From Leucoraja ocellata (taxonomy: Eukaryota), in NCBI GenBank assembly GCA_036785375.1, contig JAWMAR010000008.1, forward strand, positions 6,758,001 through 6,822,000: a stretch of 64,000 bases of DNA, read 5' to 3'. The notes under the pieces were generated by a model that was not told where the DNA came from, made no database searches, and saw only the letters and a program-made list of their open reading frames with translations. The number at the start of each line of letters is the position of its first letter. Positions within the stretch are counted from its first letter, which is position 1. Shown in pieces: positions 13,001 to 16,000 of the stretch. The translations under genes and the position numbers were made by a program.

Positions 13001-16000
13001 TTCAATGTGGTCATGACTGTTCATCCACATTCAGTACCCCGTTCCTGCTTTTTCCCCCATATCCCCTGACTCCGCTATATTTAAGAGCCCTATCTAGCTC
13101 TCTCTTAAAAGTATCCAGAGATCCGGTCTTTACTGCCCTCCGAGGCAGAGAATTCCACAGACTCACAACTCTGTGTGAAAAAGAGTTTCCTCATCTCTAA
13201 TCTAAATGGCCTACCCCTTTTCTTAAAATGTGGCCCCTGGTTCTGGACTCCCCAACATCTTACACAACTGCAACGTCTATTATCTTATTATCTATTAACA
13301 TGACCTCCCAACTTCTATACTCAATACTCTGACTGATGAAGGCCATTGTGCCAAAAGTATTTTTGGCTACCTTATCTACCTGTGACTCGACCTTCAAGGA
13401 ATCTTGCACCTGCACTTCTAGATCGCTCTGCAATACTTCCCAGAGGCCTACCGTTTACTGTGTCGGTCCTGCCCTTGTTAGACATCCCAAAATGCAACAC
13501 CTCACACTTCTCTGTATTCAATTCCATCAACCATTCCTCAGCCCACCTGGCCAATCGATCCACATCCTGCTGCAACCTTTCGCAATCATCTTCACTATCT
13601 GCACTATCATCAGTTTGTAAATTATTCCATAAAATCTGGTTAAGGGCCTCATCAGAGACTGGTAAATATAGTTAGGCAATCCAGCAGAGAAAATAGCAGG
13701 GGCAAGTTAGGAAGCAAATATCTGAGGAATTGATCGAGTTCCTGCTATTTCCAGTTCTACACAATTGAATTCTGCAGTCAGACAAGTGGTTGTGATACTA
13801 ACTTGGCTGGAAGTCAAAGCAATAGCAAAGGGATACCGAATTACCTTGACAAATGGTGTTAATGGGTACAGTCATAAGAAATGTAATTCACACCAACATA
13901 CCGAAACATGTAGGGTGTAACACACTGGAGGAAGGAACATGGGTTCCTCTGGTCCACGGATCCCCTACTCTGGGCAAATGCAGCTGCTCTAGTCAACAGG
14001 AAAACATGCCCTTCGGCACACCGCATCCATACAATAGTAAATTCCAGCCAGGGACCCACACCATATTCTCAGGCAAAGTCACATGCACTTTTCCCATTCT
14101 AGTGTACTGCATTTGATGTTCGCAATGTGGTAAACGGGAAGAGATTTAACTTTTTTTCGCCTTCCATCACAGTGAGAAATCTGTGATGGATGTTTATGTT
14201 AAAATGTATTTTGTGTGTTCTGGTGCTTTTTATTTGTATGACTGACTTGGCAAATTCCTCGTAATGTTGCAAAACATATTTGGCTAATAAAGTAGTATTG
14301 CATTGTATTGTCTCCACTACATTGGAGAAGCAATACACAGACTGCAACGCACCTGTGTCCAGCCCACAGGAGTGGTCCTGAGCTTCCGGTTGCCTGCTGC
14401 TTTAATTCTCCATCCAATGACAACAAAATACTATTGACTCTTGAACTCTTGCTCTGCACAGTTACAAGAAGGCCCAATGCTTGAGGAACAACACCTCATC
14501 TCGCATCTGGACACATTGTAAGCTTCAGAACTCAACATCAAATAATCCAAGTTGACATAACTCGCTCTTTCTTTGTGTCTGTATCAGAATTGGTCATTTC
14601 TGCCAATCGTCCATCTGTGATTCTGGCTCTGTTTCTTTCCCCTGTTCTCCATTAGTACAGGTTGACCTGCTGGCCACGTCCCTCGGCACTCCTACTAGCA
14701 ACTCACAACGCAGATAAAGAAGCATCATCTGCTTACAATTGTAACATGCGGTCTCACCCCATCAAGGATATTCATTTGTTCTGCCCATTCACTGCAACTA
14801 GGAACTAATTTGTTTCCTCGCATTCTCAAGTGGGAGAAAGAGTCTCAGACCTGAAACATGAACTAATCAACAGATACTGCCCGAGTGTTTACAGCATTTT
14901 AAATTTCATTTTATATTGTAAATATGAAAAATGGCGAGACTTTCACTAAACTTAACATAAAGTTACCAGAAAGCAGTAATCACCAAAACAGACTGAACAT
15001 GAAGCTCTAACATCAAGTTGGTAAATCCCAGGACCCTCATGTGGACTGCTTCTTCTTCTGGCGTATGGCGTGCACAGCCTAAAGTTGTCGGACAACTTGT
15101 TCTATTTGATCTTGTGCACGCCGGGCTGATTGCATTCGTTGAAACAGGGCGGACCACGTGAAGGTTGCAATCTTCCACCCCATGTGGACTGCAAGCCTTC
15201 AGCATCCCTATGGTTCAGGAACCAATGTGAACCAACCTTGACTTTGATAACCTCTTCTGAAATTATCTTGTGCCTGCTAATGAAGAAAAATATCAAACCT
15301 ACTCAGTTGCCTGCCCGAGGTAAAGGTAATCCTTGCGCTTGAAATAGTCAATGACATCCTCCATGTTGGTTTTCAGCAGATTCACTCTGACATAACGGGG
15401 CAGTCGGTAATCTGGAAAGAAAGGCAAAATCTTGGATATTATAGCAGCCCCTTATAACAATACTGAGAAAATGATGCAGTAGAAGCTTTGAGGGGGATGG
15501 AAATAGATTCTGGGGTGGGGGGGTGTCTACAAACTGCAGGTAAAAGAACGAGGTATCATGTGACTAATCCAGCCATCCGAAGCAAAGAAGAATCTACAAC
15601 CACTGGCAACTTTCCTCTTGAATTCACTGCCTTTAAACAGCAACATAGGTAATGCATCCAGTGTTTAACATAATTGCATTTGTTCTGAATGAGATGATTA
15701 GAGAATTATCAACATCCAACCAATTAAGTCTCAGATTTGATCCCTAACATTTACTGAGTTAGCCTTCCCCACATTGTCATATTAGAAAGACATTGAAGTA
15801 ATCAGCCAATATTCCTAGGTCTCATGTAATTCTCTTCATACATTGATTTGTGAATAGTAGGATCACACTCATACTGTGGTTACTGTAAGTACAGTAAGAC
15901 AGTTCACGTTTTTTGGACTCGGGACATGAAATCAGCATAACATAGATGGCAAAGCACTGTTTCTTGTCTGTCTATCATAGTCAACATTATAAATACTATG

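Follow-up and report, generated by a model that had tools for sequence, protein, structure and literature searches.

The 64-kb stretch of DNA analyzed here (the window) carries several exons of NSUN5 on its minus strand, at about 6800-16400. One of them, at 15303-15411, was recognized by a match to PDB 2b9e (E 5.8e-08) and by PF21148 and PF01189; the next lies near 11350-11220, with more exons farther downstream on that strand. Just downstream of the 15411-15303 exon is a 132-bp element at 15050-15181 (minus strand). Because NSUN5 exons lie on both sides of it on the same strand, the element sits in sense orientation within an NSUN5 intron. It starts about 121 nt after the predicted splice donor of the upstream exon. 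A second family copy occupies 5763-5892 (minus strand), and it too has the NSUN5 sense orientation. The window also holds a near-perfect inverted repeat of ~100 bp at 55274-55380, with sub-threshold microRNA matches, that is probably a MITE, and two 216-bp inverted repeats at 61134-61349 and 62532-62747 (96% identity, 1.2 kb apart) that are probably the ends of a DNA transposon.

The element, whose family members measure about 130-143 bp, joins a LINE 5' end, a junction of about 9 nt and a LINE 3' end. Hence, it has the bipartite anatomy of an internal deletion: the middle of the parent LINE is gone and no ORF is left. We number it from G1 at 15181, so that a window coordinate equals 15182 minus the element position. 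The part derived from the LINE 5' UTR (15101-15181) consists of a predicted HDV-like ribozyme head of 54 nt without P4 (15128-15181), called from its sequence, its pair counts, and a weak RF02682 match, plus about 27 nt beyond it. The junction segment (15092-15100) is absent from both LINE ends. The part derived from the LINE 3' end (15050-15091) comprises the last codons, the stop codon (15081-15079), the 3' UTR, and a (GAA)n tail. All these parts read on the minus strand. The 7 bases that follow the junction segment also occur within it in inverted form, which accounts for the inner hairpin of the element; the segment may have arisen by fold-back or template switch. An outer 10-bp stem, spanning 15067-15122, pairs 15122-15113 with 15076-15067. 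Since one of its arms derives from the LINE 5' UTR and the other from the LINE 3' UTR, the two ends of the full LINE RNA could pair with each other as well. An earlier sequence-only reading of this locus had described the 3' half as a hairpin, and its predicted fold is indeed uncommon (z = -2.89; equalled by 2 of 200 shuffles).

A target-site duplication (TSD) of 11 bp flanks the element, with its 5' copy at 15182-15192, abutting G1, and its 3' copy at 15039-15049. The copy at 5892-5763 has a 13-bp TSD that likewise ends right before its G1. Both TSDs and both 5' starts are therefore as the sequence-only reading gave them. That reading also took both copies to be headed by a ribozyme, and here only half of the claim stood. 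The head at 15181-15050 looks intact, but at 5892-5763 unrelated bases, which it did not mention, stand in place of the 3' strands of P3 and P1. To judge by these bases, the second copy is not an intact ribozyme.

The parent LINE was located in the genome with an RT motif. The motif occurs at 334 places belonging to several families. One of these families ends, about 1,100 bases downstream of the motif, in the element's last ~40 bases; among 30 RT-motif loci, the 3' end of the element was seen in this family only, and in 9 of 16 LINE loci the 3' end matches the last 37-41 nt of the element at 87-97% identity. At locus L207, the LINE start, 1,960 bases upstream of the RT motif, corresponds to family positions 1-77 at 88%. 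The parent LINE is about 3.1 kb long and has a single ORF that starts about 130 bases in and whose stop codon falls within the element's 3' part. The short element amounts to the first ~80 plus the last ~40 bases of this LINE. The TSDs and tail of the short element agree with those of the LINE. Because the LINE shares both ends with it, we conclude that the element is a short, internally deleted, nonautonomous LINE copy and not a classical SINE. It follows from this bipartite derivation that the ribozyme came with the LINE 5' UTR rather than being a novel type of SINE head. The description of the locus as a SINE-like retroposon thus holds for the retroposon, which is 132 bp long with a TSD and a tail, but not for the SINE. 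The accompanying guess that it depends on a LINE, possibly Vingi, is supported.

In Pfam searches, the protein of the parent LINE showed APE and RVT_1 domains and a weak zf-RVT match (CCHC finger), and no RNase H. The RNase H family was also found in none of the 120 homologs listed (of 280), many of which are ~1000 aa long. The best homolog, P0001, is intact, 1,019 aa long, and 70% identical, with the same domain layout. An Anolis RT protein that we take to be Vingi-1-like shares 39% identity with P0001 over 944 columns. A compact single ORF with APE and RT and without RNase H is described as what separates Vingi from Ingi (PMC13708176), and this is the layout of the parent LINE. Judged by its architecture, then, the parent is probably a Vingi-type LINE.

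We searched for further copies with LINE-specific 5' sequence and obtained 43 matches at 78-100%. Some LINE copies begin at position 1-5, many lack 7-13 or 40-65 bases at the start, and inverted 5' pieces occur in several; in two copies that span both ends, the TSDs end at position 1. All 20 LINE copies examined are broken, and hence no active driver was found. The copies with an inverted 5' piece (L216, L219, L257, L258, L261, and L266-L270) presumably resemble products of the twin priming of L1. One further copy, L263 (G000:C53:8137200-8141500), is an internal-deletion derivative of intermediate size, ~900 bp, made of about bases 13-611 plus the last ~307 of the LINE.

Several other candidates were considered as the partner of the short element. 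A LINE found by a genome search with PF14529, which we take to be I/Nimb-like, was rejected, as 30 of its loci showed no similarity to the short element. Two loci, L073 and L074 (G000:C45:2609565 and C991:359068), belong to a young LINE of this I/Nimb-like kind, whose open frames reach 1268 aa and which is not related to the short element. Locus L164 was rejected as a LINE end because there was no RT similarity upstream of it. Four exclusion patterns, aimed at a LINE with one end in common with the element, yielded 0 matches (a pattern that was too strict), 2,068 (mostly a second subfamily), 26, and 66; these were only variants or truncated copies, and the parent LINE was not among them. The genome also contains at least six distinct Vingi/Ingi-like LINE families with a common RT motif and differing tails (L177-L206).

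The short family is large. In the assembly of 3.44 Gb, which has visible duplicate haplotigs, we obtained 2,076 candidates, and the 40 that were scored are 91-100% identical; one 53-mer has 530 exact copies. At least 5,668 genomic places match 28 fixed head bases exactly, against 0 for the reversed control, and the true copy number is probably about ten thousand or higher. There is also a second subfamily, similar in size, with a different linker and a U directly following the catalytic C. On one contig, a single insertion of the element has been amplified within a tandemly repeated segment of ~2 kb (L096-L106, G000:C1:19261562-19431507).

The 5' boundary is precise across this family, as the sequence-only reading had expected. 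We scored 60 loci chosen with the head in the query, duplicates included, and left out 15 that were mis-oriented. Among the remaining 45, a TSD (duplication score of at least 8) was present in 35; it ended at G1 in 20, was ambiguous at G1 in 8, and ended one base before in 6 and three bases before in 1. A set of 30 loci chosen by a 3' anchor represented 18 insertions distinct by their flanks, with a whole 5' end in 14, an ambiguous one in 1, and a truncated one in 3. The element stretch was also matched in sequencing runs of six other organisms, with no RNA run among the matches listed. In four of these runs, searched as contigs, 145 to 15,083 contigs match, and in three of the four the loose ends of contigs accumulate at 15181/15182.

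The predicted fold of the head was re-read from the sequence, and all its helices lie where they had been placed before, as do L3, P1.1, and the C at 15138. P1 pairs element positions 1-7 with 30-36 (15181-15175 with 15152-15146) in 7 bp, the first of which is G-U. A J1/2 of 2 nt (15174-15173) leads to P2, positions 10-16 with 48-54 (15172-15166 with 15134-15128). P3 pairs positions 17-19 with 27-29 (15165-15163 with 15155-15153) in 3 bp and is closed by L3, positions 20-26 (15162-15156). For P1.1, a C22-G37 pair is possible, G37 and U38 lying at 15145-15144. There is no P4 helix, and its place is taken by an L4 of 5 nt (15143-15139). J4/2 (15138-15135) begins with C44 at 15138, which by its place in the fold is the putative catalytic cytosine, equivalent to C75 of HDV. 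The head thus has a P2 of about 7 bp stacked on a 3-bp P3 and crossing P1.

How well does this fold agree with ribozymes that are known? The P1.1 consists of one C-G pair and a U-U, which is the CPEB3 form; the two C-G pairs of the viral type are absent. The L3 bases conserved in a published HDV descriptor (U19, C23, and G24; PMC6326823) have their counterparts in U20, C24, and G25 (the conserved U...CG), and the fixed positions of that design descriptor all agree with the head save the second P1.1 pair. J4/2 of the 15050-15181 copy fits the CRRA descriptor and starts with the catalytic C; in the large subfamily and in the LINE the second base of J4/2 is U, like the RF02682 consensus. The sequence-only reading had likened L3 to that of CPEB3, and the match is exact: U20, U21, C22, A23, C24, G25, U26, G37, U38, and the C18-G28 pair equal the CPEB3 ribozyme bases at the same numbers (bioRxiv 2022.09.22.508989). 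The same preprint describes a CPEB3 P1.1 of this type as weak and prone to an inactive dimer, and PMC13635239 describes fast cleavage as compatible with a U21-U38 pair in another family member. HDV-like forms without P4 are reported to cleave (PMC10879173). In engineered constructs, J1/2 linkers of 0-1 nt were inactive or poor (PMC4908430); the linker here has 2 nt.

Automated searches recognized the head poorly, and on this point the proposed comparison with the Rfam HDV and CPEB3 models did not bear out the ribozyme. Over the whole window, Rfam gave 16 matches at E up to 5, none of them HDV or CPEB3. On a 261-nt stretch with a family copy, RF02682 matched with 14.4 bits (E 2.2; gathering threshold 44) and spanned exactly the 54-nt head; the CPEB3 model was absent from the matches to both the window and the stretch. 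The folding energy of the head was not unusual against shuffles (z 0.04), as expected of a folding program that cannot form pseudoknots. In its predictions the head alone forms P1 and P3, whereas P2 shows up when the full length is folded, each prediction giving one non-crossing half of the pseudoknot. A competing pairing, of G37-U38 with A43-C44 around a UUCG loop, is also possible and could block the core. In the 15050-15181 copy, G37 and U38 can pair in the predicted fold with the two flank bases before G1, and such pairing would be expected to damp cleavage of this copy.

Variation within the family preserves the pairs. In 43 heads (33 distinct), 97% of the pair cells are paired, versus 24-43% in slid controls; in the same set, 0 of 18 pairs showed compensatory changes within the family and its LINE. 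The common lineage variants are located in J1/2, at position 5, which forms U5-A in the LINE and mostly a U5-G wobble in the short element, and at the position that follows the catalytic C. Of the 5,668 matches to the fixed head bases, the 100 at the top of the listing, tandem duplicates included, have C at position 44 in 96 cases; position 45 is G in 46, T in 44, A in 8, and C in 2. C44 is thus changed in 4 of these 100 copies and C41 in 11. C44 decays at roughly the rate of other CpG sites, so inserted copies show no sign of selection. The C41 count indicates that single copies decay neutrally, and all that the C44 count tells is that the C has not been lost in any common lineage. In contig data from four other organisms, changes of C44 are not among the common variants. 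We consider that an HDV-like, CPEB3-type predicted fold without P4, at the exact 5' end of the element, is supported.

A second short family carries a related head. Our search pattern fixed only the P3/L3 core, left P1, P2, P4, and J4/2 unspecified, and excluded the 15050-15181 family. It occurred at 63 places versus 7 for a reversed control: 39 were copies of a second short family, 17 were mutants of the 15050-15181 family, 1 was the head of another Vingi-like LINE, and 6 were other. In the heads of the second short family, P1, P2, P4, and J4/2 are all present; P4 has 5 bp, and the heads are canonical HDV-like. They match RF02682 at E 0.001 and at best 34.2 bits, below the gathering threshold of 44. 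Ten copies of this family (L293-L302; for example, G000:C15:5802112, C42:4814848, and C337:2485715) are about 190-270 bp long with (GAA)n-like tails, and TSDs are visible in at least five. Between the two families, 8 of 18 pairs are re-lettered on both sides and 96.6% of cells are paired, compared to 29-48% in slid controls; this is one contrast of two lineages, not many independent events. The covariation of P1, P2, and P3 that had been proposed as a check is seen in this one contrast and not within the family. A parent LINE of the second family was not found among 302 loci. Another Vingi-like LINE (L275, L277, and G000:C443:521968) starts with a P1/P3/L3/P1.1 core. Two C-G pairs are possible in its P1.1 and its first pair is A-U, while P2 and J4/2 do not parse cleanly.

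We propose that this short derivative of a Vingi-type LINE uses its predicted P4-less HDV-like 5' ribozyme for release from read-through transcripts and is copied in trans by the LINE protein. A host or LINE transcript would run through a copy of the element, and the ribozyme head would cut before G1 and free the element RNA. The LINE protein would then bind the 3' end of the freed RNA, which would be inserted by target-primed reverse transcription, leaving duplications of 10-14 bp. That the parent protein mobilizes the element in trans is suggested by the ends that the two share. We consider this account probable.

An internal promoter would produce 5' ends just as precise. Perhaps a Pol II promoter in the first ~80 bases of the bipartite element makes the RNA and sets its 5' end, with the ribozyme secondary? 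The Pr77 head of L1Tc and NARTc is reported to be both internal promoter and ribozyme (PMC4035085), and Kojima 2018 (PMC5786205) expects Pol II transcription of bipartite LINEs from their 5' regions; the element, too, has retained its 27 or so nucleotides beyond the ribozyme. However, the boundary is the first base of P1, which is where HDV-like ribozymes cut (PMC4908430), and it is so in two families of differing sequence. We regard the promoter as an unlikely source of the 5' end. The SINE-like size, tail, and TSDs would also suit a classical Pol III SINE with a tRNA, 5S, or 7SL head and a LINE tail, in which the pseudoknot is coincidental. Against this, the head is the LINE's own 5' end, and it covaries across two families. 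The element shows no tRNA, 5S, or 7SL head with A and B boxes. No tRNA genes were found in the 64-kb window, and the Rfam search of the window gave no small-RNA family match on the element. Nor was there a B-box-like match, at up to one mismatch, inside any family copy examined; the sequence-only reading had likewise seen no Pol III boxes. A Pol III origin is hardly credible.

The fold could instead be a relic whose catalysis is dead or very slow and that persists because it shields the RNA from nucleases like a cap or is bound by the LINE protein. P4 has disappeared, P1.1 contains a single Watson-Crick pair, and the competing pairings described above are possible; moreover, an intact-looking copy sits in sense orientation in an NSUN5 intron, and the R2 ribozyme fold has been described as cap-like protection (PMC13708176). 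Two observations count against a relic. Neither the catalytic C nor either J4/2 adenine has been lost from the LINE or from any common lineage, whereas the adjacent base has three to four states, and a dead ribozyme without a promoter would not yield precise 5' ends. Hence, we hold a relic to be improbable and retain release by self-cleavage as the preferred account.

If this account is true, the range of 5' HDV-like ribozymes would widen to include Vingi-type LINEs and a vertebrate repeat of high copy number, and ribozymes without P4 would have both a place and a role in eukaryotes. The 130-140 bp element would be a natural minimal template, its ~80 plus ~40 bases being those that the Vingi protein likely needs, and this bears on Vingi-based gene-insertion tools that keep native UTRs (PMC13708176). 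Its thousands of copies allow a clean test of selection against self-cleaving introns, and its CPEB3-like core offers a testable origin for the CPEB3 ribozyme. A bolder scenario is that CPEB3-type HDV ribozymes head Vingi LINEs in general, that their miniatures seeded a vertebrate genome with thousands of active 54-nt self-cleaving RNAs, many of them intronic and able to cut pre-mRNA, and that the lone mammalian CPEB3 ribozyme is a domesticated 5' head of an element of this kind. We think this unlikely. Our literature search found no published Vingi ribozyme and no vertebrate or P4-less case of such a design; Repbase, Dfam, and supplements lay outside its scope and may already contain the element.

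The ribozyme-headed nonautonomous design itself is already known from R2 and L1Tc/ingi (PMC3414825 and PMC4035085), and so the surprise is limited. The R2 and R2/R1 hybrid SIDEs of Drosophila (Eickbush and Eickbush 2012, PMC3414825; also PMC6765202) resemble the element in combining a 5' HDV-like ribozyme with a LINE 3' end by internal deletion and in being nonautonomous. They are described as released from a co-transcript, whereas release is predicted here; they are rare and confined to rDNA (PMC3414825), whereas the present element is dispersed in thousands of copies and has an APE-type LINE parent. The R2 ribozyme measures about 184 nt (PMC6765202), compared to the 54-nt head here. NARTc, RIME, and SIDER of trypanosomatids, from the sister clade L1Tc/ingi, are also internally deleted, headed by an HDV-like ribozyme, and dispersed, and their TSDs of near 12 bp are akin to the 11- and 13-bp TSDs found here; however, they have a 77-nt head with P4 and promoter activity, a parent with RNase H, and protist hosts (PMC4035085). 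The present element is instead a vertebrate one, has no P4, and descends from a parent without RNase H. Nonautonomous derivatives of Vingi-1_EE, cited in Kojima 2018 (PMC5786205), are bipartite internal deletions of a Vingi LINE as well. The mammalian CPEB3 ribozyme shares with this copy the letters and numbering of L3, the C22-G37 plus U21-U38 P1.1, and an intronic, sense-strand position (bioRxiv 2022.09.22.508989 and PMC10919898), and PMC10919898 supports the analogy of intronic cleavage. It differs in being single-copy, conserved, and 67 nt long with P4, and in the letters of P2 and P3; the host gene here is NSUN5. Minimal HDV-like and theta ribozymes have no P4, like the present head, but they are described from metagenomes and from gut phages beside tRNAs (PMC10879173), whereas this head belongs to a eukaryotic retroelement.
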